DNA of 64,000 bases from a virus. Taxonomy: Duplodnaviria > Heunggongvirae > Uroviricota > Caudoviricetes. Positions 3,906-31,281 of this stretch are shown piece by piece. The notes below the pieces were generated by a model that did not search any database, was not told where the DNA came from, and saw nothing but the letters and a program-made list of their open reading frames with translations. Made by a program: the position numbers and the translations under genes. Numbering within the stretch: the first letter of the stretch is position 1; each line of letters begins with the position of its first letter. The stretch is taken from positions 1 through 64,000 of IMG/VR virus record IMGVR_UViG_2681813455_000010; one strand, 5' to 3'.

Positions 3906-5240
3906 ATGCGTTACAATCAATTTTCACATTACAAACGCTCCGACACTTTAGCCGGGGAGTTTATGAGATACAAGCCCAATCAATACATAATCTGTGATTC
4001 TTACGGTAACTACTATTTAAGGATCACGCTGCCTGTGTATATGCAGCCCTTTTTTGAAGGAAAAAGGACGTTTGTCAGGAGTCTGCACACAAGTAATCTT
4101 CGTGTTGCACGTAGAAAGCGTGATCAGATTGCAGATGAATACCATTGCTTACGGGAGAGTGTCGCCCCTGTAAACAGCACAATAGAGAACACGCTGGAAC
4201 TGTTACGCAGTAAGGCTAAATACGCCAAAACAGCTACCAGAATGCAAGATACAGCGTCTTCGTGTCCGTCATTGCTTAAAATTCTTGAAATCTACCTGAC
4301 AATTAACAGCACGAAGAAGAAGCCAGCCACTTTAGCTAAGGCAAGAAAAGCGGTAGAGATGTTTCTCTCCTACCGTAAAAAGCCTGATATTGCATTGCAA
4401 GATGTGAGCCGCACCACTGTTACAGGCTGGATTGAACACATGCAAAAAACCCTTTCACAACAATCAATTGCAAATTATATCAGCCCAATGGCCCAGCTAT
4501 GGGAGTTAGCTTCATCACGTTACCACGATGCGCCAGAAAGGGCGCTCTCCCCCTGGCGAGGGCATAGGCTTGATGTGGCACAAAGTAGAGAGAGCTACGA
4601 GGCATTTTCTAACAAAGAGCTATTGCAGGTGTTGCAAGTATTTTCCGGTAATTCAGCAGAAAACAAAGAAATGATGGCTTTGTGTCTTATCGGTGCTTAT
4701 ACAGGTATGCGGATCAATGAGATAGCAAGTCTCACAATAGACGATGTGAAAGAGATCGAAGGTGTGCTGTGTTTTGAAATCACACAGGGAAAAACGAAAG
4801 CTGCGGCGCGTGTTGTGCCTGTACATAGCCTTATCACTCCGTTGGTGTTGTCGCTGCGTGAAAAGCCTCATAATGGCTTTTTGTTCTATCACGCCAGCAT
4901 TACAGAGCGTGCTGATGGTAAACGTTCCACGTGGCACACGCAGAGATTTACAAGAGCTAAACGAAAGGCTTTAGGGGAAAAGGGAACAGAAAGGAAAGTG
5001 TTTCATTCTCTGAGACACGGAGTAGCACAGCTTCTTGATCGAAATCAAATTCCAGAAGACAGGATCGCCCTTCTCCTGGGCCATACACGCGGCAATACAG
5101 AGACATTCCGCACATATAGCAAGAATGCAGCTTCTCCAGTAGAGCTTAAAAACTATATTGAGCTTCTACGCTACCCTGAAATAGAGAAAGGCTTATCAAT
5201 CAATAAAAAATCAAATTTAAGGCGTAAAACAACGCCATAG
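3906..5240 (+). CDS. int: tyrosine-type site-specific integrase
   Basis: 444-aa ORF with ATG start; C-terminal catalytic pattern ..HSLRHGVAQLL..LLGHTRGNTETFRTYSK.. (R..H..R/H..Y) typical of tyrosine recombinases. Confidence 0.75.
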   Translation: MRYNQFSHYKRSDTLAGEFMRYKPNQYIICDSYGNYYLRITLPVYMQPFFEGKRTFVRSLHTSNLRVARRKRDQIADEYHCLRESVAPVNSTIENTLELLRSKAKYAKTATRMQDTASSCPSLLKILEIYLTINSTKKKPATLAKARKAVEMFLSYRKKPDIALQDVSRTTVTGWIEHMQKTLSQQSIANYISPMAQLWELASSRYHDAPERALSPWRGHRLDVAQSRESYEAFSNKELLQVLQVFSGNSAENKEMMALCLIGAYTGMRINEIASLTIDDVKEIEGVLCFEITQGKTKAAARVVPVHSLITPLVLSLREKPHNGFLFYHASITERADGKRSTWHTQRFTRAKRKALGEKGTERKVFHSLRHGVAQLLDRNQIPEDRIALLLGHTRGNTETFRTYSKNAASPVELKNYIELLRYPEIEKGLSINKKSNLRRKTTP

Positions 5241-5320
5241 ACGCAATAAAGAGGCTTCAACATAATTGGTAGCCTCTTTTATAATTACATCGTTACAGAG
5301 CGTTTTAGAGGCGTTTACGG

Positions 5321-6034
5321 CTATTCCTGTTTAAAGGCAGGCGTAATAGTGTCTTCACCTTCACTACTTGATTTTTCAGTGTTAACACGTTTTTTCATAT
5401 TAGCCCCGATGTTCTTAGATGGCTGTGTTTTGAGAGCTACAGTGTTTACAGTGCCATACGACACTAATCTGATTTGCTCAAATTCCAAATCAAATACCAG
5501 AGATTCGCTTGCTTCTTCTGTGTATTCGATGCCTGTTAAAACAACGTTCTCAAAAGTTTTATTTTCTGTAACAAGAAGAAAAGGCTGTCTACTGTCCATA
5601 ATCTGATTTAGATAATCAATCGCTAATGATCTTCTGTTCCCGTTCACCCCTGCACTCTTTAACAAGCCAGGATCGCTTTTAATCGGTGTTTCAGTGATCC
5701 TTCCTTTAAGAGAAAACTTATTGTTTTTAATTTGAACGTGATCAGACACAGTAGCACCATTTTCTACGGGGTAGCTTGTGACATCTGCCGAACGTCTCAC
5801 GTTCACATCGTCTACACTGTCAAAGGCCAGTGCCATATAATTTTCATAAACGTCATTGCCAGAAGATGCCAAGCCACTGGTAACAATAGCAAATCCGTTC
5901 TCTCCTTTTGTTTTATTAGCTTTGCTATTTTCGTTTTTTGTAGAGTTTATATCTTGTTCTGCTTTGTAAACAGCCTGAACGTGTTGTTCTGGAGTATTTG
6001 CTGCACGTATGGTTAAAATCCCGGCGGTCGCCAT
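5321..6034 (-). CDS. hypothetical protein (237 aa)
   Basis: ATG start with AAGGAAA Shine-Dalgarno; co-directional with neighbouring gene block. Confidence 0.45.
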   Translation of the reverse strand: MATAGILTIRAANTPEQHVQAVYKAEQDINSTKNENSKANKTKGENGFAIVTSGLASSGNDVYENYMALAFDSVDDVNVRRSADVTSYPVENGATVSDHVQIKNNKFSLKGRITETPIKSDPGLLKSAGVNGNRRSLAIDYLNQIMDSRQPFLLVTENKTFENVVLTGIEYTEEASESLVFDLEFEQIRLVSYGTVNTVALKTQPSKNIGANMKKRVNTEKSSSEGEDTITPAFKQE

Positions 6035-6067
6035 AATAATAATTTCCTTGTAATGTTATGGCGGGAA

Positions 6068-7897
6068 TTACCCGCCGTTGGATTGTCCTGATAAGCTGGT
6101 TAATGTTAATGATTTCAAGAAGCTATCCCGACTTGCTCTCGCTGTAAAATCCACATAATCGCTTAATCTGGATGTGTCAGAATTAATAGTAAGAGGAACC
6201 TCTGTTACCACTTCAAATGTAGGATTCAGATTAAACACAGGAGATAAATTATAAGCCGGAGTTGTCATTGCAAGATTATTTAAAGCACCCTGTTTGAGAT
6301 TGGTTATCGGTGCTTCGCTGACTGACATTTTTACATCTGACACAGAAGATTTATCATCGAAAAGCAATCCCTTAATCGTATTAAATAGAGAATGACTATT
6401 ATCAGGTGTAGTTGTTGCAGTGCCAGCGCCTTTATATTGATCAGGAACGAGATTAGAAAGATTCTGTTTCATTCCTTCATTGCTTAATGGCGGTGCATCT
6501 CCCATATTTTTCTGAATAGCTTCCGTCTTATCATCATTACGATTAAACCAGTTTACAATCTTCATAATAGCTTCAAAGAGACTTCCTGTAGCTTCTCCCA
6601 GCTTCGTAAAATACGGAGTGAGATTAGAAAGGTTTTTCATAAACTCTTCCGTTACTTTTGGATCAAGAGATTTCATAAAGCCGTCTACGAATGCTACTTG
6701 TCTTGCATCAGAAAGCTGTGAAAGCTGTCTGTTTAGTTCTCTGAATTTAACGATAGATTCTTGCTGTGTTTCTGTTAGCCATTTTCCAGAGGCTTTTTGC
6801 TGATTAATACTTTCTTGTACATCTTTAACGGAACGTTGCCAATATTTTGACGTAAGCATCAAATCATCGCCCAGGTCTTCTAAACGTTGTCCAATTTGGG
6901 AGTCTGAAAACCCTTTTTTCATCATTCCATTAACAGCCTTAGAAATTAATCCGGCTGGATTATCAGCAAATTTTTTAAGGTCGCTTTTGTTAATAACACC
7001 GATGTTTAGAAGTTCATTAATAGCGTTATCACCGCCTTTCCATTCAGATTTTCCGGTTTTCTTATCTTTCACCAATTCAGCTTCACTGTAGGATTTTGCG
7101 GCACGTTCCCTAACATCTTTCATCTGATCCAGGTATTTTCTAGCCCCTTGATCACCCATCATAGAGTCAACGCCGTTTCTATAGGCCCATTCTGTAATGT
7201 TATACATCTGGTTAACGTCTACACCGCCCAGCTTGGCACGTTGAATTAGCTCACCTTGCGTGTCAGCGTTAGCGAAGCTATTAGCCATAAATTCAGCGGT
7301 TTTGCTTGCAGCCATCACGCCAGCCGCCGCTGTAGCGCCTCCAAATAACAGAGCGCCCATAGTGGCGGAATTCCCTGATCCTCCCTTAACGGGGGCTAAT
7401 TGAGCTTTTCTGTTGCCATTAATCTTACGTTGTTGCTGTTGTAAGCGTTTCATCTGGCTATTCATACGTGCAAGCGAGATAGCCCCTTGCTCATATTGTT
7501 TCGCTATCTCTCTAGCCTGTGCAATAGCTTTATATTGTTCCGCTACAGAGAGGCGGTGCATTGCACTAATGCTTGATCCAACGTCTAAAAGCTTTAGTTC
7601 AGCTTTCTCCTTACGTGCTGCTATTTGTTGCTGTTGCCTTGCCTGTGCTCTTGCTGCGGCAGCTTGTGCTCTTTGATTCTGTTTTTCTGTTTTAGCTTTC
7701 TGTTGAGCAATCTTGTCTACTTCGCTTTGTGCTTTCTTATAGCCTTTAGTGACATTATCAAACCTCAGTTTAGCTGGCTTGATATTATCAGTGAATTCTT
7801 TTAGGCTTGTAATAGAGTCTTTCGCTTTTTTCAAGCTGTCTTTATCTACACTAAATGTAACTGTGTTCTTAATTTTAGAAGTGTTAATTTCTAACAT
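6068..7897 (-). CDS. hypothetical coiled-coil protein (609 aa) with Gln/Ala-rich helix and Gly/Ala-rich hydrophobic segment; tape-measure-like or scaffold-like (speculative)
   Basis: ATG start with AGGGGA SD; long heptad-like Q/A/R-rich stretch and GALLFGGATAAAGVMAAS segment. Confidence 0.5.
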   Translation of the reverse strand: MLEINTSKIKNTVTFSVDKDSLKKAKDSITSLKEFTDNIKPAKLRFDNVTKGYKKAQSEVDKIAQQKAKTEKQNQRAQAAAARAQARQQQQIAARKEKAELKLLDVGSSISAMHRLSVAEQYKAIAQAREIAKQYEQGAISLARMNSQMKRLQQQQRKINGNRKAQLAPVKGGSGNSATMGALLFGGATAAAGVMAASKTAEFMANSFANADTQGELIQRAKLGGVDVNQMYNITEWAYRNGVDSMMGDQGARKYLDQMKDVRERAAKSYSEAELVKDKKTGKSEWKGGDNAINELLNIGVINKSDLKKFADNPAGLISKAVNGMMKKGFSDSQIGQRLEDLGDDLMLTSKYWQRSVKDVQESINQQKASGKWLTETQQESIVKFRELNRQLSQLSDARQVAFVDGFMKSLDPKVTEEFMKNLSNLTPYFTKLGEATGSLFEAIMKIVNWFNRNDDKTEAIQKNMGDAPPLSNEGMKQNLSNLVPDQYKGAGTATTTPDNSHSLFNTIKGLLFDDKSSVSDVKMSVSEAPITNLKQGALNNLAMTTPAYNLSPVFNLNPTFEVVTEVPLTINSDTSRLSDYVDFTARASRDSFLKSLTLTSLSGQSNGG

Positions 7898-7911
7898 TTA
7901 AAATCCCCTTA

Positions 7912-8115
7912 TTAATCATTTTTATCACCTTCTTTACTTAAGAAATGGTGTAGAGCCTGATCAATACTCTCGTTTAATCTGAACATACGGGCTTTTACTC
8001 CTTCATATGGAACATCTAAAAGAGAACAGAGATATTTCAGATTTAACAAGCCTCTAGAATCATTAGCATCTAGATGTACGTGCACACCATTTTTTGATTT
8101 CAAAATCACTTCCAT
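7912..8115 (-). CDS. hypothetical protein (67 aa)
   Basis: Short ORF tightly packed between neighbouring minus-strand genes. Confidence 0.35.
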   Translation of the reverse strand: MEVILKSKNGVHVHLDANDSRGLLNLKYLCSLLDVPYEGVKARMFRLNESIDQALHHFLSKEGDKND

Positions 8116-8201
8116 ATTTTAATCACCTCTCAAAATTTAAAAATAAATAAAAAAAAGGCGAAGCGTGAATACACGCCACGCCTCTATTACACGTTAAAAT
8201 A

Positions 8202-9230
8202 TTATTTAACAGTGATTTGAACGGAGAAGCCTACACCGTGGTTTACAACCATCTGGCTATTCTCTGTAACAACGTTAACAGCATCACCACGAGAAGATTC
8301 ATAGCTGTAGCTATAGACCTCAGTAGGGGCGGCATTGATCAGTTCAAAGGTGCTGGAAGCAGCCCCGTAGATGTTCTGATATACGTTAGAGCCTTTAGCG
8401 AATTTAGGCACAGCTACAGCGTCTGCGGTCATATGTGCCAGGTGTAGCGGATCTACCAGTTTAATAACATCAATGTTAGTTCCTGGAATAGTGAACGCTG
8501 TCACTCCTGGCAGCAGGTCACGACGCTGATACACAACGTTCCCTTCTTCCAGTGGGCTTACATACTGGAATGCGTTTGCCATACCAGCAGAGAATCGAAT
8601 TGCAGAGAAGGCGTCAGGTTTACAGAAAACAACAATACGCTCTACAGCAGCCGCCTGACTCTGTGCTTTTTCAATAATATCAGTAGCAATCTGATCAAAT
8701 TCTTTAAAAATCTTCGTGGTGTCAGTGCTGGAAGCGTTCACAGTGGCTTTCATAGCTGATACGTTAAACAGCTTGCCCCACTCAATTAACACATCATCAG
8801 TTTTCGGTGTGTAAGTTTTACCGCTAAACAGAGATGCAGCTAGCACGCTCTCTTTTGTACGCTGATACGCTACGTGATGTTTTGCAACATAGTCAGCATA
8901 GATATCAGTGAGTGTTTCCTGAAAATCAGTGCCAGGCTTACGCTTGCCTTGAACATCAGAAGGACGGATCACATCTTCACGAAGAAAATACGGGATTTCA
9001 ATCAGCCATTCTTTACCTTGTTCTCGCTTAGTAACATTGTGTTCAGAAGAGAAACGAGAGGTTTCTTTGTTGAACAGAGATTCGTTGCTTTCGACAAGCT
9101 GGGAAACAGCTACTTTATGAGATGTAACCCCTACAGAATCCGTAAAATCAAGAGTAGAAAGCAGATAGTTTCTAGTGCTATGCGCAGAGAACAGAGGAGC
9201 TAAATCAACGTAATCATTACCTAGAATCAT
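8202..9230 (-). CDS. hypothetical protein (342 aa); possible major capsid protein of lambda gpE-like family (weak, pattern-based)
   Basis: ATG start with AAGGA SD; size and C-terminal half pattern (..RIVVFCKPDAFSAIRF.., ..VVY..) loosely resemble lambda gpE; no search run. Confidence 0.5.
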   Translation of the reverse strand: MILGNDYVDLAPLFSAHSTRNYLLSTLDFTDSVGVTSHKVAVSQLVESNESLFNKETSRFSSEHNVTKREQGKEWLIEIPYFLREDVIRPSDVQGKRKPGTDFQETLTDIYADYVAKHHVAYQRTKESVLAASLFSGKTYTPKTDDVLIEWGKLFNVSAMKATVNASSTDTTKIFKEFDQIATDIIEKAQSQAAAVERIVVFCKPDAFSAIRFSAGMANAFQYVSPLEEGNVVYQRRDLLPGVTAFTIPGTNIDVIKLVDPLHLAHMTADAVAVPKFAKGSNVYQNIYGAASSTFELINAAPTEVYSYSYESSRGDAVNVVTENSQMVVNHGVGFSVQITVK

Positions 9231-9248
9231 TTATTATTATTCCTTTTA

Positions 9249-9611
9249 TTAAGAAGTGAAAACCGTATTAAAGCCTTCAAGCTGGAAGCCTTTTTTAATT
9301 AATGCTGTTTTTGCTGCTTCACTTACAGCATTCAGGGCATCAGCTTTAATGCACACAAGGCCAGCATTGCTACGTAGCACATCTACAGGCTTGTTTTCTC
9401 CTGCCGTTACAAATTCACTCATAACAACATAGATATCATCTCCTGATTCATATTTAGCGCCCGTGCTTGTGATCAAGTCGCCACACTCAACATCAGCAGG
9501 AAGAGAAGCAAAAACCTTGCTTTCTACAGAGGCAAACGGATCAGTACAATAACTTACAATATCTGTGAAAGTCTTTCTAACTGGAAACAGAGTGTCTAAA
9601 TCAATAATCAT
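9249..9611 (-). CDS. hypothetical protein (120 aa); possible head decoration-like protein (position-based guess)
   Basis: ATG start with AAGGAGA SD; immediately upstream of capsid-like gene. Confidence 0.4.
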   Translation of the reverse strand: MIIDLDTLFPVRKTFTDIVSYCTDPFASVESKVFASLPADVECGDLITSTGAKYESGDDIYVVMSEFVTAGENKPVDVLRSNAGLVCIKADALNAVSEAAKTALIKKGFQLEGFNTVFTS

Positions 9612-9820
9612 TTAGTAATCTCCTTAGCTTTTAATTTGATTAATTCATTAAGGGAAGGTGTAGACGGAGAAGAAGGAGAAAAATATTTTTCAACACATCT
9701 TTCTACTTCCTCTACAGAACACCCAGCGTATTTAGCTACCATTTCGGTAATTTGTGGATTAATTTTCAGCATTTCATCTTTATACTTGATGATTTGCTCT
9801 TTATCATTTAAGAACAACAT
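9608..9820 (-). CDS. hypothetical protein (70 aa)
   Basis: ATG start, 4-bp overlap with downstream gene (coupling). Confidence 0.4.
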   Translation of the reverse strand: MLFLNDKEQIIKYKDEMLKINPQITEMVAKYAGCSVEEVERCVEKYFSPSSPSTPSLNELIKLKAKEITK

Positions 9821-10169
9821 TTATATAAACCTTGTTACCTTGTTTAAAGTAAGAAATACAACTTTTAAGTTGCATAACGGGCAAAATAAAAGGCAGCATT
9901 TAGAGCCGCCTTTTATTAACTTGTACCTATGTAATTACCCTATGTTATGCATACTCCAAGATGTATGCATAACAAAGGAAAAAAGAGGTAATAATGACAC
10001 AGTATTACTTAAGGAGGAGAAGCGGGGAGCGGAGATTTTACTCCCCTTTAACGACAAGAAGAATTTTTAATATCGAACCAATAAAGGAAAAATAATCACC
10101 CCTATATAATTATATTAACATACAATAGATGAAATGTCAAGATATTTTACAACTTTTTTGTTGCTTTTT

Positions 10170-10538
10170 TTATTCTTCTGTGATAGTAGCGCCTAAGCGT
10201 TGAGCTAGTTCAACAAGGCCATCTCCCACATAGCGAACATCAGATTCAATATCTTCTATCCAGTTTGAGAGACTCCATATCTGATCCGCTGTCAGATATG
10301 CGTTCTCACGCTTACAGAGCATCTCTACACGCTTAGAGAGGTGCTCAAAGGCATTCACAGCTAAATCCCAGTGTTTAAACGCCTCATTGAGTGCCGCTGG
10401 CGTGTTTTCTCTGTATGCTTCAAGTTCAGCACGGTTTAAAGGCAGGAGGTAATCATCCTCATAATAATTAATTAGTGAGTAAATTGTGTCATACGTGTTT
10501 TTGTTCATATTAAAAGTCTCCATAGTGATCAGCACCAT
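10170..10538 (-). CDS. hypothetical protein (122 aa)
   Basis: ORF in co-directional block; overlaps upstream gene end. Confidence 0.4.
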   Translation of the reverse strand: MVLITMETFNMNKNTYDTIYSLINYYEDDYLLPLNRAELEAYRENTPAALNEAFKHWDLAVNAFEHLSKRVEMLCKRENAYLTADQIWSLSNWIEDIESDVRYVGDGLVELAQRLGATITEE

Positions 10539-10920
10539 CTAAAATTTGGAATTCAGGGACTAAATTATTTAGGCCATTGGTGGCGAGATAACCGACGTAG
10601 TGATTATAATCTTCAAATCCTAAAATCTGGTATTTGCGTAAATCAGAGCTATCAACGATATACTCTTTTCTTTTTCTAGGTTTCCAGAATACGCCAGGTG
10701 TTGAAGATAAGATTTCTTGTAAGGCGTTAAATTCATCTCCACAAGGCACAGAGGGAGAATGTTCTATGATCTCTGTTTTCCATTCGCCAGGGGCGCTATT
10801 TTGCTTGGTGAGCGTAACTAGCTCTTTAAAGTCTTTACGTCTTAGAATAGATTTAGGTTTACTTAGAAGAGAAGCTGAATCACCGATTTTCTTAACAACG
10901 TTGTTTTTTCTTTTTGCCAT
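10510..10920 (-). CDS. hypothetical protein (136 aa), basic N-terminus
   Basis: ORF in co-directional block. Confidence 0.4.
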   Translation of the reverse strand: MAKRKNNVVKKIGDSASLLSKPKSILRRKDFKELVTLTKQNSAPGEWKTEIIEHSPSVPCGDEFNALQEILSSTPGVFWKPRKRKEYIVDSSDLRKYQILGFEDYNHYVGYLATNGLNNLVPEFQILDGADHYGDF

Positions 10921-11052
10921 TATTTACTTTTCCTTTTCTTTTAAAGGAAAACACCCCGAAATATGCTTCTAACGTGATAAAGAACAATAACCAATACATA
11001 GCTACTATCATAATAATGTTTTCCTTTTATATTTTAATTACATAGAGAGATT

Positions 11053-11331
11053 TTAGAGAGTGGAATAGATGAAGTCTATTTCTTTATCCAGTCTTTTGAG
11101 ATTGAATGTAGAGAAAGATAATTCTTTAATCTCTATAACACCGAAATTTGATAGCTGTCTAAGCCAGAATTTTAAACCATCTTCAGAGCACCCTGCTCGA
11201 TGTAACACATCGCTATATTTTAGCGGTGTTGGCTTTCCTTTATAGAGGTAAGCAAGTGTTTCATAGATGCGTTTTCCTGTGTCATTACACTGAATTCTGT
11301 CTACTTGATTTTTTACTAAATATTGAATCAT
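11053..11331 (-). CDS. hypothetical small DNA-binding-like protein (92 aa)
   Basis: ORF in co-directional block; helix-turn-helix-like middle segment (guess). Confidence 0.35.
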   Translation of the reverse strand: MIQYLVKNQVDRIQCNDTGKRIYETLAYLYKGKPTPLKYSDVLHRAGCSEDGLKFWLRQLSNFGVIEIKELSFSTFNLKRLDKEIDFIYSTL

Positions 11332-11342
11332 AACCCTCCTTA

Positions 11343-12035
11343 TTAAAATGGAATATCAAAGTCTTCATATACTTTGGGATGTTTCTTAGCAAAATATGCC
11401 TCAATACCATTTGGTCGTTTTAGCCCGTATCTACAAGCTAGTGAATTTGCAAACTCAATAAATGATGCCCCTGCTGTTCTGGTATTCTTCTGCTGGCAGA
11501 TAAGAGAGGCAAAATTCTCTAACACATCCTCCTCATTATCATTAGCTACCTTTTCATTTGATGAAACAGGTGTTTCTTCCGTCTCCCACGGCAAAGGCGT
11601 ATCCCAATCATCATCAAGAACATCAAAAGAAGGCTGTTTATGGCCTTTAGGTTGTTCCTGTGCTTCTTCTGCCTCAGAAAGATCAGAGAGTGATGATTCT
11701 CCTGGGGGAGTAATATGTGCATCTGTGAGAGGGAGAGCATTGTAAATCAAAGATGAAATATACGGATCAGGATGTGGGGATGTTTCTAATAATCCCATCT
11801 CTTTAAGATCGTTTATCTTACGTTTAATTGTTGACGATGAAGACTTAAAAATCTTAGCTAATGTTTCGTGACTTTCATAACAATTAAGGTTGTTTTCCTG
11901 ATAACTAAGGAATCGAAAATAAAGCACAATATGTAATAGATCTAAATCTTTTCCTTGAGGGAATTTATCAGAATAAATCTTTGATACATTATCAAACGTG
12001 TCATAGTGTTTTGTAAAAGTTAGTTGATTAATCAT
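11343..12035 (-). CDS. hypothetical protein (230 aa) with N-terminal winged-helix-like segment and acidic linker; candidate replication or regulatory protein
   Basis: ATG start with AAGGAGA SD; ..ETLAKIFKSSSSTIKRKINDLKEMGLLE.. resembles wHTH. Confidence 0.45.
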   Translation of the reverse strand: MINQLTFTKHYDTFDNVSKIYSDKFPQGKDLDLLHIVLYFRFLSYQENNLNCYESHETLAKIFKSSSSTIKRKINDLKEMGLLETSPHPDPYISSLIYNALPLTDAHITPPGESSLSDLSEAEEAQEQPKGHKQPSFDVLDDDWDTPLPWETEETPVSSNEKVANDNEEDVLENFASLICQQKNTRTAGASFIEFANSLACRYGLKRPNGIEAYFAKKHPKVYEDFDIPF

Positions 12036-12086
12036 TAAAAATCTCCTTATAAATCACGCTTAATGCGCTACTAAAGTGAATGAGGA

Positions 12087-12254
12087 TCACTTACCCTTTT
12101 TTTGTTTGATGTTCTCTGCTGCTTCAGTAATGATTTCTAACATCAAATCACTGACCATAATTTGCCTTTTCTTGGCTTCAGCAAATAAAACCTTGAAGAT
12201 TTCAGGGTCAACGTGTAGGTAAGTGCGCGGAATTGGTTTCTTAGTTTCGCTCAT
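12087..12254 (-). CDS. small ribbon-helix-helix-like protein (55 aa)
   Basis: ATG 12254 with AGGAG SD; translation MSETKKPIPRTYLHVDPEIFKVLFAEAKKRQIMVSDLMLEIITEAAENIKQKKGK; below ORF-track cutoff, found by eye. Confidence 0.4.
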   Translation of the reverse strand: MSETKKPIPRTYLHVDPEIFKVLFAEAKKRQIMVSDLMLEIITEAAENIKQKKGK

Positions 12255-12273
12255 AGTTTTCTCCTTCTATTCT

Positions 12274-12462
12274 TTACTCTGTTTCAGATTCTTTTTCATT
12301 TTTTCTTAGTTCATCAATAATCTTGAGTGCTTCATTGAAGCAAGCTGCTCGTTCTGGATAACCTCGACTCCTTGCCATATTACGATTCATTACTACTTGA
12401 TGGCGTGTAAGCTCACCTTTTTTAAATGCCTGGATGACGTGCTCAGGTGTAAACCATTTCAT
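12274..12462 (-). CDS. hypothetical protein (62 aa)
   Basis: Short ORF adjacent to RHH gene. Confidence 0.3.
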   Translation of the reverse strand: MKWFTPEHVIQAFKKGELTRHQVVMNRNMARSRGYPERAACFNEALKIIDELRKNEKESETE

Positions 12463-15184: not shown

Positions 15185-16376
15185 TGCCTCCTTGATATTT
15201 GGGGATTCTGGATTTTCCAGATCGGGGGGCGCTGAAAATCGCGTTAAGCACCTCTCGCAATCTAGCCATAAGGGAGGGGATATAGGTATTAAGATGTATT
15301 TATAGCTATTTATGGCTATTTATTTTTTATTTACCTTTATTTAAAAATAACCTTATAAATCAATAAGATACAGAACTATCTGTTTATATTTTAACCAATT
15401 AAATCAAGTTTAATACCCTTAAATAACCTGAAAATAGCCTTAAATACCCCAATAATTAATTTTAAGGCTTTCCGTGTTCTCTCCTGCATTATGAAAATGC
15501 AAAATAAGGCACAAAACAAGCTCACAGACGCATTAAACACACATCACCTATACATCCCTATACCAAGCAATGAAAACAGCGTTAGAATGCGTCCTGTTGC
15601 GCTCTGGAGATTTTCAGAAATCCTCTCTAAGCCATTTCAACTCACTAAGGAGTTTTCTTTCTTCGTTCTCTCGTTGCTTTCGCTCTAGCCAGGCTTTTCC
15701 TTCTGGCGTAGACAGGAACTTACGAGCGTGAATCTTGCGGTTATTCCGTTTGATAGCTGCAATGTTTTTCATCGTGTGCCTCTGTATTCATATGAAAATT
15801 AACAAGTTACATACTACACAGGGAGACTACGCATAAAACACAATACAAGTAAAGATACATTTTCAAGACAATAGGAGCCATAAAGCGCCTTTGATGGTTA
15901 TACCAAAAAATAAGCGCCGTAGGCGTATCCACTAAAAAGGGCTTTTTCACAAAAGCTATGAAGTCTTAGCAGTTCTTCTCTTATCAGGCACCCGTTGTAC
16001 TCCGGTGGACGAAACCGTGCTAGAGCTTGATTCTTTCCCGATCAAGTTAGGTTTTGAAGAGGTGGGCTTTAATCCACTATTGCACTTAAAACTCTTCCCA
16101 TCATTTAGCCTGTTTATCCTCTGCAACGTCTCACGACGTGTAGCATCATTGGACACCGCGCCAGGTGTGGAACATCTTGCTAAGAGTTTTGGTAGAAGGT
16201 TTAGAGACGGTGGCACGTCTTCCAGCTTCAAAGGAACTTGTTACGAGGTTGAGCCTGGGAACTACTCGCCCATACGTGTTACACTACCAAAGCCCATAAC
16301 AACGTATAGGCGTTTGTAAGTGATAACAGAAGATACAATTTCTTAGAGAAGTTAAGCTAAGTTATTGATTTTCTTG

Positions 16377-16761: not shown

Positions 16762-17802
16762 TTAGGCCTTTTTTAAGTACTCTCTCTGAATATTATTTGT
16801 AAGTTCAATTCTGTTAATCTCATTTGGGGTAAAAACCAAATTAACAAAACCCGCTTGTGCAGCGTGTAATTCCCCAGTATTTTCTATTTTCCCCTGCGAT
16901 TTTAACTCATATTCTAATGCATGGATGAGCTGTACCAATTTTTTACCCCTAGAAGTGAGTGGTGCCATAAAAGATGGCTGTCTATAACGATCATACCATT
17001 CAATCATGCATTCAGAAAAATCAATATCAGCTATATGTTGATGCACGATGAACTTTATATACTCAAACAAAAAATTTTGTTCTGAATCACCGACTCCGAT
17101 TCCAAAAGGTAAATTTTGATTATCCATTTCAATTTCTGCTATTCCTAATGCCATATCCATACCAAAATATAAAGATCGTCCGGCATTAGTTAGGCCAGTA
17201 CAGAAAAGATTGAAATATGAGACAGGAAATGAAGCATTGTTACTCTCAGTCTTAATCAAATAGTCTAGGATAGCTTCGACAGACATGATGTCTTGATCTA
17301 AAATCGCAAATCCTTCAAAGAGTTTTTTAGCACTGGTCAATTGCAAGACATTTGATTTGGGTATGGTAATACCCTTTGCATCAGTTGTCTTGGAAACTCT
17401 TAATGCATGGCGAACATCTTGCCAATAACTTAAATTTGTTTCTGGGTTGTGAATAATAATAAGCACAGGCAATGGAAATCTTTCCCAGTAAAATCGATGC
17501 TTCTCTTCCGGGTAGAAAATCCAATATCCATTACTTTCCTTAAAAAAGGACACCCCTGACTTTATTTGAACGGCTATTATCCTTCCTGTAGCAAAACCCT
17601 CGGGACTGACATACTCAATCTGACCATCAATTCCAACGTCAGCCATCGGAGTTTCACGCCAAATCTGGCCAATTTTGGCCATTGCTTCCGCTACAGCATT
17701 TACACCCAATCTTTCTTGAGAATTAGTCTGGTTATATTTTGGGAAATTCATATTTTTTCTCAATCGCATGACACTGGCAACATTTCCTTCAAAATCTGGC
17801 AC
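16762..17802 (-). CDS. DUF4365-like (restriction-endonuclease-fold) N-terminal domain protein with unknown C-terminal domain; candidate defence protein. Start uncertain (GTG 17802, ATG 17769 or 17751)
   Basis: N-terminus ..ERLGVNAVAEAMAKIGQIWRETPMADVGIDGQIEYV..IAVQIKSG.. matches recalled DUF4365 pattern with D...E.K-like residues; AT-rich. Confidence 0.45.
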   Translation of the reverse strand: MPDFEGNVASVMRLRKNMNFPKYNQTNSQERLGVNAVAEAMAKIGQIWRETPMADVGIDGQIEYVSPEGFATGRIIAVQIKSGVSFFKESNGYWIFYPEEKHRFYWERFPLPVLIIIHNPETNLSYWQDVRHALRVSKTTDAKGITIPKSNVLQLTSAKKLFEGFAILDQDIMSVEAILDYLIKTESNNASFPVSYFNLFCTGLTNAGRSLYFGMDMALGIAEIEMDNQNLPFGIGVGDSEQNFLFEYIKFIVHQHIADIDFSECMIEWYDRYRQPSFMAPLTSRGKKLVQLIHALEYELKSQGKIENTGELHAAQAGFVNLVFTPNEINRIELTNNIQREYLKKA

Positions 17803-20442: not shown

Positions 20443-22221
20443 ATGGGTTTTTATAATGACGCACTGAGTAAAATATATAGTGAAGATGATGATTTCCTAA
20501 TTATAGGATTAACAGGGAGGACGGGGTCAGGCTGTTCAACAGTTTCTAATATACTGTCATCAGAATCAAGTGAGATAAAGCATTCTCTATTTAACGGTGA
20601 TTACCCTAAGTCGAATGAAGAAAGAAAAGAGCGGGTTCTATTTAAATATTTTTCCGTGTCATGGGTTCCATTTATAAAAATACAAGCAAGTTCCATACTG
20701 ACATTGTGTTTATCAAAGGACTTTGATGGTAAGCTGAATAAATTTATTCGGGAAGTGACGGAGTTAGGTAATGACCAAAGAATCCTAGAGTCAACAGTTA
20801 ATGATCTTGAATCTATACTAAAAGAAATTAAAGCTAAAGATGAAAGCTCTGATCATGATATAGATGATAAGATAAAATTCATAAATGAATATCTAATAAA
20901 AGCGAATACACAAATTAAATCCATATTTAAGAACAAGGCTGACTATATAAAATTATATCAAGCTATAGGTAATAATTATAGATCTAGTGGGATGTACCAT
21001 GACAGTTCATTTAGTGATGATTTCCATGGCTTTTTTCTTCCTAAAAAAATAAATGATATAATTCAAAGATTAAGAACCTTAGCAAAAGAAAAGAACACAA
21101 AAACTGGAGAAAAGAAACCTATTTATATAGTTATTGATGCTATAAGAAATCCGTTCGAAGCAACATACTTCCAAGATAGATACTCATCATTTTATTTAAT
21201 GGCTGTTTCTACAGAAGAGCATTACAGGCATCAAAGGCTTAGAGAACAAGGTTTAACTGATGCTGAGATAAAAGATATTGATGCAAAAGAATACCGTAAA
21301 TCATCTTTGGATGAGAAGTCATCATATATATATCAGAATATACAGTCTTGTTTAGAAATATCAGACATCTATGTTGAGAATCCGGAAGAGGAAAATGTTG
21401 TTTGTCGGTACTCAGGATTGGCTAATCAATTAATTAAATTCACTTCATTAATGAAGCGTCCTGGTATAATAACTCCATCAAATGTTGAACGTTGCATGCA
21501 GATAGCATATACAGCTAAGTTGAACTCTGGTTGTATATCCAGGCAGGTAGGCGCTGCAGTATCTGATAGTTCATTTTCAATTAAGTCTATTGGTTGGAAT
21601 GATGTACCAAGTGGTCAAGTTCCTTGCTCTTTAAGGGATAGGTTTGATTTGTCTGAGGGGATTGATGATATTGCTTACTCTGAATTCGAAAAGAACGAAA
21701 ATAGTTTCATTCGAAAAATAGATAGCACTAAGATTATTTTTTTAGATGTTAAAAATAAAGGAATGAGAGCTCCATTTTGTTTTAAAACAGAATGGAATAA
21801 TATCCTTGATGATAAATACAAAGAAGATCTACGGGTCGAACATAAGTTAAATGATGATGAGTTTGCTATTATTGACAAAATAAAGTCTAACGCTAATCAA
21901 GTTTTTACAAGATCACTTCATGCTGAAGAGAATGCTTTCTTACAAATATCTAAGTATGGTGGCGTTGGTATACAGAATGGTTTTTTGTTCACAACAGCAA
22001 GCCCTTGTGAATTATGTTCTAAAAAAGCGTATCAATTAGGGATCAAACAAATATATTACATAGATCCATACCCTGGTATAGCAATGAGGAATATTTTAAA
22101 CGCAGGGAGCAATAAACCATTGCTTAAGCTTTTCAATGGTGCAATAGGTAAGGCATTCCATAATTTTTACACGCCAAGAATGGCTTATAAAGATGAGCTT
22201 TCAGCAAGATCTAGGGGATGA
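20443..22221 (+). CDS. P-loop kinase-like N-terminal domain fused to cytidine/dCMP-deaminase-like C-terminal domain; candidate nucleotide-depletion defence protein (dCTP-deaminase type)
   Basis: ATG with GGAG SD; N-terminal GLTGRTGSGCST P-loop-like motif; C-terminal HAEENA...SPCELC zinc-deaminase signature. Confidence 0.55.
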   Translation: MGFYNDALSKIYSEDDDFLIIGLTGRTGSGCSTVSNILSSESSEIKHSLFNGDYPKSNEERKERVLFKYFSVSWVPFIKIQASSILTLCLSKDFDGKLNKFIREVTELGNDQRILESTVNDLESILKEIKAKDESSDHDIDDKIKFINEYLIKANTQIKSIFKNKADYIKLYQAIGNNYRSSGMYHDSSFSDDFHGFFLPKKINDIIQRLRTLAKEKNTKTGEKKPIYIVIDAIRNPFEATYFQDRYSSFYLMAVSTEEHYRHQRLREQGLTDAEIKDIDAKEYRKSSLDEKSSYIYQNIQSCLEISDIYVENPEEENVVCRYSGLANQLIKFTSLMKRPGIITPSNVERCMQIAYTAKLNSGCISRQVGAAVSDSSFSIKSIGWNDVPSGQVPCSLRDRFDLSEGIDDIAYSEFEKNENSFIRKIDSTKIIFLDVKNKGMRAPFCFKTEWNNILDDKYKEDLRVEHKLNDDEFAIIDKIKSNANQVFTRSLHAEENAFLQISKYGGVGIQNGFLFTTASPCELCSKKAYQLGIKQIYYIDPYPGIAMRNILNAGSNKPLLKLFNGAIGKAFHNFYTPRMAYKDELSARSRG

Positions 22222-26748: not shown

Positions 26749-29700
26749 TCAACGGATACTGATACCGGAAGCAGCTTTTTTGGTCACAATCACCGTACAG
26801 TCTGTGATGTTACCTGCGCCCTGATTGCCTTTCTGGAAAATCTTAAACTCCAGAGTGACGCTACCACCACCACTCGGCATATCAATAACCGCACTGTAAC
26901 TACCGGGAATGGCTCCTTTAGTTTCTCTGGATGCGATTAATACGCCGTTTTTGCGAACTTCAAAACCATAACCCGTGTATTTCGTACCTCCCGGGTTATT
27001 ACCGCTCCCCGGATCGTCATACGCCATACCGTTAAAAATAATGGGTGGAATAATAATCTGGCGGTCAAAGTTATGATCATCGTAAATGGTGACTGTAACC
27101 GTCCCGCCTGGTGTTTCCGTATCGCCCCACGAGCCAGTTTTTTTCGGGAATGGCTTAGATACAGCTTTAACGAAGTCACCTTTGACCTGAGTAGCCTCGA
27201 GCATTCCCTTAATCGTACAGTTCTCATTTATCGTGACGTTGTTGAGCGTCCCGGAGTTCGCATTCACGTTACCGCTGATATCGGCATTTTTCGCCGTCAA
27301 CCGCCCGTCCGGTGTCAGGGAAAATACCGGCGGATTGCCGCCGCTGGTAATGGTGGGAGCCGTCAGATACTTCAGGAACACTTCGTTCATGAATATCTGG
27401 TTGCCCTGCGCCACAAACATCGGAGTTTCATTCCCGTTTGCCGGGTCAATAAACGCGATACGGTTAGCGGCAACCAGGAACTGGCTCAGTTTACCTTCCT
27501 CCGTATCCTCCATGCTGAGGCCAATCCCCGCGACATAATGCCTGCCGTCTTCGGTCTGCTCAATTTTGACGCCCCACATGGCATTCCATTTATCGTTGGC
27601 GTCTTTCCACTCTTTCGAAAACTCCTCCAGTTTGCTGGCGTTATCCTCCGTCAGCTCGACTTTTTCCAGCAGCTCCTTGCCGAGATGGGATTCGGTTATC
27701 TGGCCTTTGAAAAAATCCAGGTAACCTTCCGCATCATCGCTCGCCCGACCGACAGCCTCCACAAATGCCGATTTGCCAACGGTGTTCACACTGCGGATAT
27801 AAAAATAATAATCATGGCCCGGTTTGATATTGATACTGGCGGCTATCCAGTACAGCGCCGTGCCAAGATAGCGGGCTGTGGTTTCAACCTGCCTGATATC
27901 CGCTATCCGCTTTTCCGAGAACCAGAACTCAAACTGTACCGTCGGATCATAAACCGCAAGATGCGGCGTGGCGGTTATCTGAAAATAGCCCGGCGTCAGC
28001 TCAATCCGCGACGGTGCTGCCGGTGCGGCAATCCGGAACGATACCGATGCCGGATCGCCCTGCTGTCCCCACGCATTTACCGCCCGGACTGTCAGCCTGT
28101 AATTTCCCAGCGCCAGTTGCGTGAAGCGGTATGTGGTTTCCGTCGTCCTGGCCGTGCTTACCAGCCGCTCACTGCCATCGTCCGCTGCCACGGTCAGGCG
28201 AAGCAGGAATCTCACGCCCTTCACCACCTTCGGCGTGTCCCAGCGCGCCAGCACCTGATATTCCCCACTGTCTGCGGTGACTTCTGCGGTCAGGTGCTGC
28301 ACCGCTGGCGGCGTGACACCATTCACCGTGCCGCTCCGGTCGCCGTCAAAGTGCGCCCCGTTATCCACGATGGCCTCTTTTTCCGGCACATGCTGCACGG
28401 CAGTGATGGCATACGTGCCGTCGTCGTTCTCACGGATACTCACACAGCGGAACAGGCGCTGGCGCAGCGTCGGCAGCTTCAGCCCCCACACGCTGTATTC
28501 AGCAACGCCGTCAGGAACACGGCTCACTTTCACCTTCACGCCGTCGGTGACGGACTGGACCTCCACACTGACCGGATTACCCTCACCGTCAACCAGGCTT
28601 ATCAGCGTGGTGCCGGAGGATGGCAGCGTGATTTCACGGTCGAGCGTCAGCGTCCGGGTCTGGCTGTTCACCGCCAGTACGCGACCACCGATGCTGATCC
28701 CCGCATAGTCATCATCGCAGATTTCAATGACATCGCCCGGTACATGGCGAAGCCCTTCTGCGCCCACGCTGAAGTCCACGGTCTGCGTTTCCAGCAGTTC
28801 CGTTTTAATCAGCCACAGCCCGGCGCGGTGCGCCTGCCCCCGGCTGGTACAGCCAAAGGCATCCATCTTCGTGACGTTACGACCGTAACGGAGAATGGCC
28901 TGCGTATCCTCCACAAGCTCTGTTGCCGTCTCCCAGCCGTTATCCGGGTCAATCCAGTTCACCTCAACGGCATTATGGCGGTCTTTCAGGGCGCTGAAGC
29001 TGTAGCGGAACGGCGCGCCATCATCCGGCATCACCACATTACTGCGGTTATAGGTCCACACCTTATCCGACGGTCGGTCCTGCACGAACGTCAGCATCTG
29101 CCCGTTCCATACCGGCATACAGCGCATCGCCGAGCAGAAATCGCTGAGAACATCCCACGCCTTACGCTGCGTGGTCAGGTAAGCGTTACAGGTGATGCGC
29201 GGCTCCGTGCCACCAAAGCCATCCGGCACCGACTGGTCGCAATTCTGGCCGATGACATACAGCGCCCATTTGTCCACATCCGCCGCACCGAGACGCTTCC
29301 CCATGCCGTAGCGCGGATGGGTCAGCATATCCCACAGACACCAGGCCATGTTGTTGCTGTATGCCGGTTTAAACGTCCCGTCCCAGATACCGCTGTATTG
29401 CCGCGTCTGCGGGTTATAGTTCGACGGCACCTGCAGAATGCGCCCGCGAAGATGATAATTACGGCTCACCTGCTGGCTGCCGAACTGCTCCGAATCCACC
29501 TGCACGCCGACCAGTGCCGTGTTCGGGTAGCACTGTTTCACATCGATGATTTCGGTGTATGACGACCAGAGCGTTTTGTTCTGCAGCTGGTCTGTGGTGC
29601 TGTCCGGCGTCATCCTGCGCATCCGGATATTAAACGGGCGCGGCGGCAGGTTATCCACCACCACCGAGGCCAGATACTGTGAAGTGGTTTTGCCCTTAAT

Positions 29701-30162
29701 GGTGATGTCTTTTTCCGTCACCCAGCCACCGTTACGTTGTATCTGAACCAGCAGGCGGACTTCCGACGGATTCCGGTCACCCTTTGAGGTGGTTTCCACC
29801 AGTGCCTGCACACCAAAGGTAAAGCGCAGACGGTCGATGTTTGCAGACGTGATGGTGCGGGTTATCGGCGTGTCGTATTTCACTTCCGTACCCAGCACCG
29901 TCTCGGAGCCGGAGGATTCAAAACCCTCCGGCGGTGTCTGCTCCTGCTCACCTGCCCGGAACACCACCGTGACACCGGCGATGTTGGTATTCCCTTCGCT
30001 ATCCAGCACCGGCGTACTGTTCAGCAGCACGCTTTTTAATCCATCCACCGGACCTTCAATCGGCCCTTCGCTGATGGCATCGATCACACTCAGCAGCTGC
30101 GTGGACTTCAGGTTGTCCTTCGCTTCGCGCGGGGTATGCCCCTTACTGCTTCCTTTACCCAT
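26749..30162 (-). CDS. J: host specificity protein J (central tail fibre)
   Basis: 1137 aa; size, position and sequence match lambda gpJ. Confidence 0.95.
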
Positions 30163-30228
30163 TCCTCACACTCCATAAACAACAAAGCCGCCCAAAAGGC
30201 GGCTCATGAGTTACGGCAGGATTAACTA

Positions 30229-30567
30229 TTATTTACATGCATTAACACTATCAGCAAAAATTTTTGGCGTTAATGCTGGTACACGTTCATAAAGAGTAAA
30301 ACTACTGCCATTTCCTGCTTTTTTGATATCAAGCACAACATCATATCCCCCCATAGCCTGTGGAACTAAAAGGCTTACCCCATTCTCAATAGGAAGGGAT
30401 GTTATAGGTGTTCCATTACCAGCCCATTGTCTGGATATGCAGCCTGACAATTCATCAATATTTTTTAATGAATTACCTTCCATTACAGGTTTTCCGGATT
30501 TTACGTAATCCAAAGATTTACATCCTGTTAAGGCAATAATCGTGCAGAATAAAATCGTTTTGTTCAT
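30229..30567 (-). CDS. lipoprotein (112 aa) inserted between tail genes I and J; moron candidate
   Basis: ATG 30567; signal peptide MNKTILFCTIIALTGC with lipobox; no lambda counterpart at this position. Confidence 0.55.
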   Translation of the reverse strand: MNKTILFCTIIALTGCKSLDYVKSGKPVMEGNSLKNIDELSGCISRQWAGNGTPITSLPIENGVSLLVPQAMGGYDVVLDIKKAGNGSSFTLYERVPALTPKIFADSVNACK

Positions 30568-30639
30568 ATAGCTAACCAATAGAATAATTATCAGTGTTCG
30601 ATATAAATATTAAATCAGTTAGAACATGAGTAAATAATA

Positions 30640-31281
30640 TTACCGCCCAATTACCACAACCTGACCACCATCCCCTTCATCTGCCGTGCTGATCTCCTGA
30701 GAAACCACGCGTGACCCCACGCGCATTTCACCGTACAGAACAGGCAGAACATTGCCCTGGGCAACCATGTTATCCAGTGAGGAGAAATAGGTGTTCTGTT
30801 TGCCGTTATCCGTTGTCTGTGTACGGGGTGTTTTGGGTTTAGGAGCCAGCATCTGTGCAACACCACCAAGCGTCATCGCTGCCCCCATAGAAAAGAGGAT
30901 GTCACTGAAAGCGATACTGATTCCCGGCATCCAGATTGCCGTTGCAATCAGCGCCGCACCCAGCACCGCCTGAAATACACCACCACTTTTAGCACCCGCC
31001 AGACGCGGTACGATGTGGATCACGGCACCATTTGCCAACGGCTCATTAAGACGGACTGATAATTCCGTTTCACCTGCATCACGCCCGGCAATGCGCACCT
31101 GATACCAGCCCTCATTCAGTTTCTGACGAAATGCGGGGATCTGCGTGGCCAGCGCCCGGATGGCTTCGGCACCCGTTTTCACACGAAGGTCGATGCGGCG
31201 GCCAAATCGTTGCAAATCCCCGTAAAGGCAGATGCGTGCCATGCCCGGTGACGCCAGAGGGAGTGTGTGCGTCGCTGCCAT
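30640..31281 (-). CDS. I: tail assembly protein I
   Basis: MAATHTLPLASPGMARICLYGDLQRF.. matches lambda gpI. Confidence 0.9.
   Translation of the reverse strand: MAATHTLPLASPGMARICLYGDLQRFGRRIDLRVKTGAEAIRALATQIPAFRQKLNEGWYQVRIAGRDAGETELSVRLNEPLANGAVIHIVPRLAGAKSGGVFQAVLGAALIATAIWMPGISIAFSDILFSMGAAMTLGGVAQMLAPKPKTPRTQTTDNGKQNTYFSSLDNMVAQGNVLPVLYGEMRVGSRVVSQEISTADEGDGGQVVVIGR

Follow-up and report, generated by a model that had tools for sequence, protein, structure and literature searches.

Exclusion functions have been tested experimentally for several proteins encoded in the tail-gene regions of phages, namely Cor, HK97 gp15, and the mEp lipoproteins Lpp021 and Lpp010 (PMC3594210, PMC11893012). 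Cor is known from phi80, N15, HK022, and T1, corresponds to PHROG 1119, and inactivates FhuA. It is a small lipoprotein of about 77 residues with an outer-membrane signal, and it goes with FhuA-dependent phages. The cor gene is moron-like cargo that lies on the downstream side of J, close to the side tail fibre genes. Llp of T5 (8a60 chain B) and the mEpimmI proteins Lpp021 and Lpp010 are lipoproteins of 72 to 83 residues, which are encoded beside the receptor-binding gene. They have been shown to exclude phages that use the same receptor (FhuA, OmpA, or LamB), and each of them corresponds to the receptor that its own phage uses. To our knowledge, every characterised exclusion lipoprotein of the tail region (Cor, Llp, and the mEp Lpp proteins) is a receptor mask of 60 to 80 residues.

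Gene 15 of HK97 is a moron of the tail operon located in the slot between T and H, and its product is a tail-dependent superinfection exclusion protein (PMC3594210). The YebO-like gp15 is a small inner-membrane protein and not a lipoprotein. Its exclusion depends on the tail of the incoming phage rather than on a receptor, which is the type of mechanism favoured in the present work. Bor of lambda, associated with Iss-like serum resistance, is an outer-membrane lipoprotein of about 100 residues that is carried by the prophage as accessory cargo. The bor gene lies beside the lysis genes and is oriented in the opposite direction to them.

According to the definition of Juhala and Hendrix, a moron is an additional gene that separates two genes which are neighbours in related phages; it has a deviant base composition, its own terminator, and its own promoter, and is expressed from the repressed prophage (PMC3594210). 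The gene described here is a moron that was acquired horizontally and is intact; it occupies the I-J spacer of a lambda-like Escherichia coli prophage. Its product belongs to PHROG 914 and resembles Cor in being a small phage lipoprotein of the tail region with an outer-membrane signal, encoded by moron-like cargo. With Llp, Lpp021, and Lpp010 it shares the position of its gene beside the receptor-binding gene, and with Bor the approximate size and the accessory nature.

The lipoprotein gene and its neighbours

The window (the whole stretch of 64,000 nucleotides that was analysed) comprises a complete lambda-like prophage with its lysis, head, and tail genes on the minus strand. Its sequence is identical to that of E. 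coli SF-468 (NZ_CP012625.1), a bloodstream isolate. The features around the lipoprotein gene and the evidence for them are listed here.

30640..31281, minus strand: tail assembly gene I, upstream neighbour (ORF; Pfam Lambda_tail_I in equivalent loci)
about 30208..30636, minus strand: AT-rich inserted segment (moron) of about 425 bp (alignment of the lambda and cdtI I-J junctions; GC profile)
30229..30567, minus strand: PHROG 914 prolipoprotein gene (ORF and translation, RefSeq CDS, PHROG 914 match with E 7e-33, alignments, AlphaFold2 model)
30185..30205, minus strand: GC-rich hairpin with a trailing T-rich run (terminator-like match, located after the stop codon of the lipoprotein gene and before the ribosome-binding site of J)
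26749..30162, minus strand: tail tip and host-specificity gene J, downstream neighbour (ORF, annotation, J comparisons)

The first-pass annotation had described an ORF of 112 codons with a canonical lipoprotein signal on the late-gene strand, at a position where lambda has no gene, and both observations are borne out. The ORF is intact and runs from an ATG at 30567 to a TAA stop codon, and RefSeq places a CDS at identical coordinates on the SF-468 chromosome (WP_001332187.1, hypothetical protein). Translation of the ORF yields MNKTILFCTIIALTGC/KSLD..., a product of 112 residues with the N-terminus MNKTILFCTIIALTGCKSLDYV.... In lambda, the end of gene I (15444) and the start of J (15505) are separated by a spacer of only 60 bp without a gene. 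Phage cdtI likewise lacks the insert and has a gene-free I-J spacer of 60 bp.

In RefSeq, the upstream gene I ("tail assembly protein") begins at an internal start at 31215. The downstream gene encodes a J protein of 1137 residues, of which the last 300 or so represent one of at least four alternative C-terminal types found beside the same lipoprotein gene. Downstream of J (window 26749-26700 region), the very next gene is a tail-fibre gene, and lom is missing. An Ail/Lom gene after J is present in most of the other prophages that carry this lipoprotein gene.

Alignment with lambda and cdtI delimits the insert, which begins directly after the stop codon of I and stops just upstream of a hairpin that is also found in lambda. 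The deviant base composition of a moron is apparent, as the GC content is 0.34 to 0.40 across the insert (0.36 for the gene alone) and 0.55 to 0.62 in the flanking tail genes. The hairpin at 30185-30205 was considered as the moron's own terminator and rejected. The hairpin occurs in lambda (NC_001416, about 15470-15495) and cdtI as well, with differences in both arms; it therefore belongs to the resident I-J spacer and was not brought by the insert. It is nevertheless predicted that this hairpin would end any transcript starting inside the insert. In lambda, cdtI, and the present prophage alike, the spacer hairpin resembles an intrinsic terminator within the late operon. It may act as a landing pad that is used repeatedly, or be the trace left by an earlier moron.

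The 72-nt spacer upstream of the lipoprotein gene lies within the insert and contains only weak sigma-70-like hexamers. Promoter scans upstream of the E. coli copy found no sigma-70 match of at least 9/12 at normal spacing; the best candidates are TTTACT-16-TAATAT and TTTAAT-16-GATAAT with 8/12 each. There is no clear Shine-Dalgarno sequence ahead of the gene, and an Rfam scan gave only a sub-threshold GcvB match. Because the gene is located inside the late operon on the same strand, it is expected to be transcribed at least with the late tail genes. The prophage may also transcribe it independently.

Insertions at the I-J junction are recurrent. In mEp021, this slot is occupied by an HNH endonuclease gene (locus L037, MH706966.1, 45958-46524), and in one E. 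coli prophage an IS66 element is found between I and the lipoprotein gene (locus L021, 5377-7893).

Predicted localisation and fold

The protein has a signal peptide of 15 residues with the lipobox LTG/C16 and a lysine at position +2, leaving a mature part of 97 residues. The lipobox pattern [LVI][ASTVI][GAS]C is present as MNKTILFCTIIALTG/C. In an alignment of 58 diverse members, with a mean column identity of 26% and 16 to 54% identity to the window protein, the lipobox cysteine is found in all 58. Leucine occupies position -3 in 40 of them and glycine, alanine, or serine position -1 in every one, giving the family lipobox [LIVM][ATS][GAS]C. The invariant residues are the lipobox cysteine, Cys43, and Cys111, with Pro27, Trp48, and Gly63 being nearly so. 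Exactly two further cysteines are present in 52 of the 58 members. The +2 residue is A, S, K, T, G, V, E, or L, and never Asp.

In E. coli, an aspartate at +2 is the Lol signal for retention in the inner membrane. The conserved lipobox, the consistent absence of this aspartate, and the conserved cysteine pair therefore point to Lol sorting to the outer membrane and to one periplasmic disulfide, as far as sequence rules can predict. By the same rules, the protein would be exported via Sec and then lipidated at Cys16. With lysine instead of aspartate at +2, it would subsequently be passed by the Lol system to the outer membrane and anchored in its inner leaflet. The domain of about 95 residues that then faces the periplasm would be compact, helix-grip-like, and stapled by the disulfide.

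AlphaFold2 modelling with the family alignment gave a mean pLDDT of 85, exceeding 90 over most of the mature part, and a beta-alpha-beta4-alpha topology. The predicted fold is a helix-grip-like alpha/beta domain, for which a fold search identified Francisella Flpp3 as the closest structure. The similarity to Flpp3 (DUF3568) and to the N-terminal domain of BamC is a resemblance of fold only, with a sequence identity of 6 to 12%, and the window protein has no Pfam match to DUF3568. KA1, DUF302, and Bet v 1 score equally in the fold search. Given how common the helix-grip-like fold is, it is hardly informative about function. Of the viral models, an uncharacterised protein of Pseudomonas phage phiAH14a matches best and is probably a family member. 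A sequence search of the PDB returned no match, and T5 Llp (8a60_B) aligned over the signal peptide only.

Distribution and conservation of PHROG 914

The protein matches the PHROG 914 profile with an E value of 7.3e-33, residues 1-112 aligning to profile positions 1-118 of 118. PHROG 914 is annotated as "unknown function", and distant relatives match the same PHROG. Homologs with 50 to 60% identity are found in Klebsiella, Kluyvera, Enterobacter, and Jejubacter. Within the enterobacterial subgroup, dN/dS is about 0.1 to 0.2, with saturated dS. The full-length profile match, these homologs, the low dN/dS, and the recurrence in E. coli genomes show that the gene is not a chance ORF. A profile search of 1.8 billion representative proteins yielded 125 clusters, nearly all of 105 to 125 residues. 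Two long repeat proteins from the HMM search, P0091 and P0115, were discarded as spurious.

The spread within E. coli was determined with a 601-bp query (window 30100-30700) comprising the end of I, the gene, and the start of J. This query was covered to at least 80% in 334 of 5426 complete E. coli genomes (about 6%), while any match was found in 4237 genomes. Most E. coli genomes matching the I and J flanks of the query thus lack the gene, which is therefore dispensable. The exact protein is recorded on more than 1000 contigs, always under the name "hypothetical protein" or "Lipoprotein".

Overall, the family occurs in phages of Klebsiella, Enterobacter, Kluyvera, Serratia, Burkholderia, and Pseudomonas. 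Members from phage isolates include Gp19 of phiKO2 and p54 of Serratia phage vB_SspS_OS31 (both by tblastn), VUF53278.1 of Escherichia phage Fraca, and QBP07791.1 of Klebsiella phage ST846-OXA48phi9.1. The PHROG 914 members from phage isolates have the same length, lipobox, and two conserved cysteines as the E. coli copy, but share only 26 to 30% identity with it. When 50,697 phage records were searched by tblastn with the E. coli protein, nothing was returned at 1e-5; the distant members surfaced only with other queries.

Scans of the protein against Pfam, NCBIfam, and PADLOC identified no family, with zero PADLOC matches. The sole NCBIfam match, VirB7, was dismissed as signal-peptide level (E 0.08). 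The JGI label "YceK" on the distant member P0172 is unsupported by any search; the Pfam scans, in which P0172 itself was left out, gave no significant match. Neither the accession WP_001332187.1 nor the PHROG 914 identifier was mentioned in the literature searched. Taken together, profile, structure, and PADLOC searches revealed no homology or fold match of PHROG 914 to any protein of known function. The family is catalogued in PHROG without a name, and is a structurally distinct variant among the lipoprotein morons of tail regions.

Genomic slots

The position of the gene varies between hosts. The exact E. coli protein is always encoded between I and J, the Klebsiella and Kluyvera homologs occupy the slot between K and I, and the Enterobacter homolog lies between the chaperone gene T and the tape measure gene H. 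A census of 69 IMG/VR loci, covering the enterobacterial subfamily only, gave 58 with the gene between I and J, five between K and I, and six in front of H, with the gene on the tail-gene strand in all 69. The extra gene between adjacent genes that characterises a moron is thus found in three different slots, and is absent from lambda and cdtI. The slot-hopping, the foreign composition, and the dispensability identify the lipoprotein gene as a moron and not as a tail component. For a specialist, the mere presence of such a gene is not surprising; its recurrence in three slots of the tail operon is a mild surprise.

The members in Fraca, LMessi, and Klebsiella phage ST846-OXA48phi9.1, at 26 to 30% identity, are also located in the K-I slot. 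Wherever the context of phage-isolate members was read, the gene lies inside a lambda-type tail operon on the late strand, as in E. coli, where it differs in occupying I-J instead of K-I. In Fraca and LMessi, a second small gene (PHROG 2320, unknown function) is found just upstream of the lipoprotein gene (L016, 5725-5994, and L018, 5647-5994, respectively). In one IMG/VR locus, about 4 kb separate K from the lipoprotein gene (L099, 2045-6000). The gene of the OS31 member was described as adjoining tail fiber genes (PMC7556043).

In the K-I and T-H slots, each copy is followed by its own hairpin and T-run. The K-I copies also have in common the element TGCTAATCT, an extended -10-like sequence (TGnTAAT-like) about 30 nt upstream of the ATG. 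The terminators of the K-I and T-H copies and the element shared by the K-I copies suggest independent transcription.

More distant members lie outside tail operons altogether. In Burkholderia gladioli, the gene forms a unit by itself that closely follows a cI-like HTH repressor gene and is equipped with a terminator of its own. About 100 nt upstream of this copy (L029, about 5891-5906) lies a perfect LexA box, CTGTACATAAATACAG; of 14 family genes whose upstream regions were searched for LexA boxes, only the Burkholderia copy has one. Of the other distant members, one is antisense to head genes, one lies in a replication module, and one in an integrase-bounded island.

Comparison with other phage lipoproteins

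The first-pass annotation had likened the protein to Cor and had named sequence comparison with Cor and other phage lipoproteins as the check. This kinship did not materialise, as the protein matches PHROG 914 only and shows no match to PHROG 1119 at E values up to 10, whereas Cor of Fraca matches PHROG 1119 at 7e-34. The scores obtained with the PHROG 914 family profile are given below.

True family members: 90-121 bits
Cor (Fraca): 10.2 bits
Bor (lambda): 10.0 bits
Lpp021 (mEp021 gp81, 72 residues): 9.3 bits
Lpp010 (mEp010 gp116, 82 residues): 6.4 bits

Scores of 6.4 to 10.2 bits correspond to the level of a signal peptide, and in the case of Cor the similarity is indeed limited to this part. 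BLASTP with the mature part gave no match to Cor, Bor, Lpp021, or Lpp010. At 112 residues, the window protein is longer than Cor, and its gene is located upstream of J instead of downstream. Llp, Lpp021, and Lpp010 have neither detectable homology nor a fold match to it. HK97 gp15 shows no homology with PHROG 914 either, although its gene shares the slot between T and the tape measure gene with the Enterobacter copies.

Fraca carries both the PHROG 914 gene, in the K-I slot, and cor. The presence of both in one phage indicates that the two genes are not interchangeable.

Linkage to the receptor-binding end of J

Whereas Cor is found with FhuA-dependent phages, the PHROG 914 protein is not bound to any single J type. 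In a set of 46 loci for which J is complete, an identical lipoprotein, or one differing in a single residue, is linked to at least four types of J C-terminus (33, 6, 3, and 2 loci). A pair of J proteins aligned in full is 96 to 100% identical over the first 800 residues or so, with a breakpoint near residue 800. The last 150 residues of the two commonest types are about 40% identical to each other, and each is 35 to 43% identical to the corresponding part of lambda J. In Klebsiella and Kluyvera, the neighbouring J proteins have 1600 to 3300 residues.

As one and the same lipoprotein is combined with at least four J ends, it is the conserved tail-tip module that the gene accompanies, rather than the receptor-binding end. 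For the same reason, the protein does not appear to be matched to the receptor of its own phage. This indifference of the lipoprotein to the J end is a mild surprise. The variation is evidence against a Cor-type model and not proof, since recent swaps of J ends could give the same pattern.

The identity of the commonest linked J end with the LamB-binding end of lambda was considered and ruled out, as the two are only 43% identical. None of the alternative C-terminal cassettes (window 26749-27700; L019-L098) equals the LamB-binding end of lambda.

Proposed function

From its location and by analogy with the systems described above, an exclusion function in general is plausible. Of the Cor-type exclusion proposed by the first-pass annotation, the moron hallmarks and the predicted outer-membrane lipoprotein stand; the Cor-like part falls away with the missing homology, the coexistence with cor, and the multiple J ends. 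The reading preferred here, tentatively and with slightly less than even confidence, is that the protein acts as an envelope-level phage-exclusion factor without masking the receptor of its own phage, an assignment that draws on analogy and linkage. In a lysogen or a late-infected cell, the lipoprotein would exclude phages at the cell envelope. The best fit would be interference in the periplasm, following adsorption, with lambda-type tail-tip or tape-measure components of the incoming phage, or else the blocking of a receptor unrelated to that of its own phage. The gene is linked to T/H, K, I, and the N-terminal part of J, i.e. to the conserved tail-tip and tape-measure genes, and not to the variable J end.

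Ltp in Gram-positive bacteria and HK97 gp15 are both proposed to interfere after adsorption with tail-tip or tape-measure components. By analogy, PHROG 914 could represent a new class of periplasm-facing exclusion lipoproteins in siphophages of Gram-negative hosts, recognising such components of the incoming phage once it has adsorbed and serving as a functional counterpart of Ltp and gp15 instead of masking a receptor. This more specific proposal is doubtful. It would explain the linkage to T/H, K, I, and the N-terminal part of J, the indifference to the J end, and the coexistence with Cor. The linkage to tail genes may, on the other hand, reflect tolerated insertion sites and recombination of tail modules instead of function.

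An unlikely alternative is a lipoprotein for host fitness or virulence, which would provide serum resistance, stress tolerance, or adhesion by lysogenic conversion in the manner of Bor and Iss, and would have no anti-phage role. Lambda carries cargo of this kind with Bor and Lom (PMC3594210). The nearest structural neighbour, Flpp3, is a virulence determinant according to the title of its PDB entry. The window comes from a bloodstream ExPEC isolate and the family is widespread in clinical Enterobacteriaceae, but the sources of isolates are biased to clinical strains. The protein has no homology to Bor, and neither Bor nor Iss is matched in Pfam. Moreover, every enterobacterial copy is located in the tail operon on the late strand, which is odd for a gene that is needed in a repressed prophage, and the E. 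coli copy has no clear promoter.

Less probable still is that the protein is a late-phase helper of the phage's own lytic cycle. In this case, it would be produced solely together with the tail proteins or upon SOS induction, and would act on the envelope of the dying cell, for example by limiting re-adsorption of progeny to debris or by conditioning the outer membrane or peptidoglycan before lysis. The late-operon strand in all IMG/VR loci of the census and the weak or absent promoter signals of the E. coli copy agree with this, and the LexA box of the Burkholderia homolog suggests expression at induction. However, most lambda-like prophages do without the gene, which is hence dispensable for the lytic cycle. 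The terminators in the other slots and the TGnTAAT-like element of the K-I copies suggest independent transcription, and some distant members are antisense to late genes.

Finally, a Cor- or Llp-type lipoprotein that binds the receptor of its own phage from the periplasmic side, preventing superinfection and the loss of progeny on debris, is improbable: it would suit an outer-membrane-type lipoprotein encoded beside tail-tip genes, as with Cor, Llp, and the mEp proteins Lpp021 and Lpp010 (PMC11893012), and the family member OS31 p54 was speculated in 2020 to be a "Cor analog" (PMC7556043), but size and fold differ from those of these proteins, homology to them is absent, the J ends beside an identical protein diverge, giant J proteins accompany the family in Klebsiella and Kluyvera, Fraca has cor in addition, and the distant members are not near any receptor-binding gene.

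Other cargo in the window

Beyond the tail-fibre genes, the window contains defence-like cargo at 20443-22221 (plus strand) and 16762-17802 (minus strand). It includes a protein of 592 residues that matches the PADLOC dCTPase model (E 5e-127) and a DUF4365 protein, the N-terminus of which matches a model of an Argonaute-associated REase (E 8.5e-22). A partial integrase and a recombinase gene are found nearby. A compact element of about 9 kb is located at 3963-12462, beside a frameshifted vat autotransporter gene. It encodes its own integrase, a transcriptional regulator, a "major capsid protein", and a "phage baseplate protein", and looks like a phage satellite or remnant that is separate from the lambda-like prophage.

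Significance

Tail-region lipoprotein morons are recognised as a means of superinfection exclusion, and PHROG 914 adds a larger protein with a different fold. If the protein is a host-fitness factor instead, it would be a common and so far unannotated prophage cargo in ExPEC. If it provides receptor-independent exclusion, it would constitute a new envelope-level defence in the best-studied type of phage, relevant to the prediction of host range and to phage therapy directed at clinical Enterobacteriaceae.
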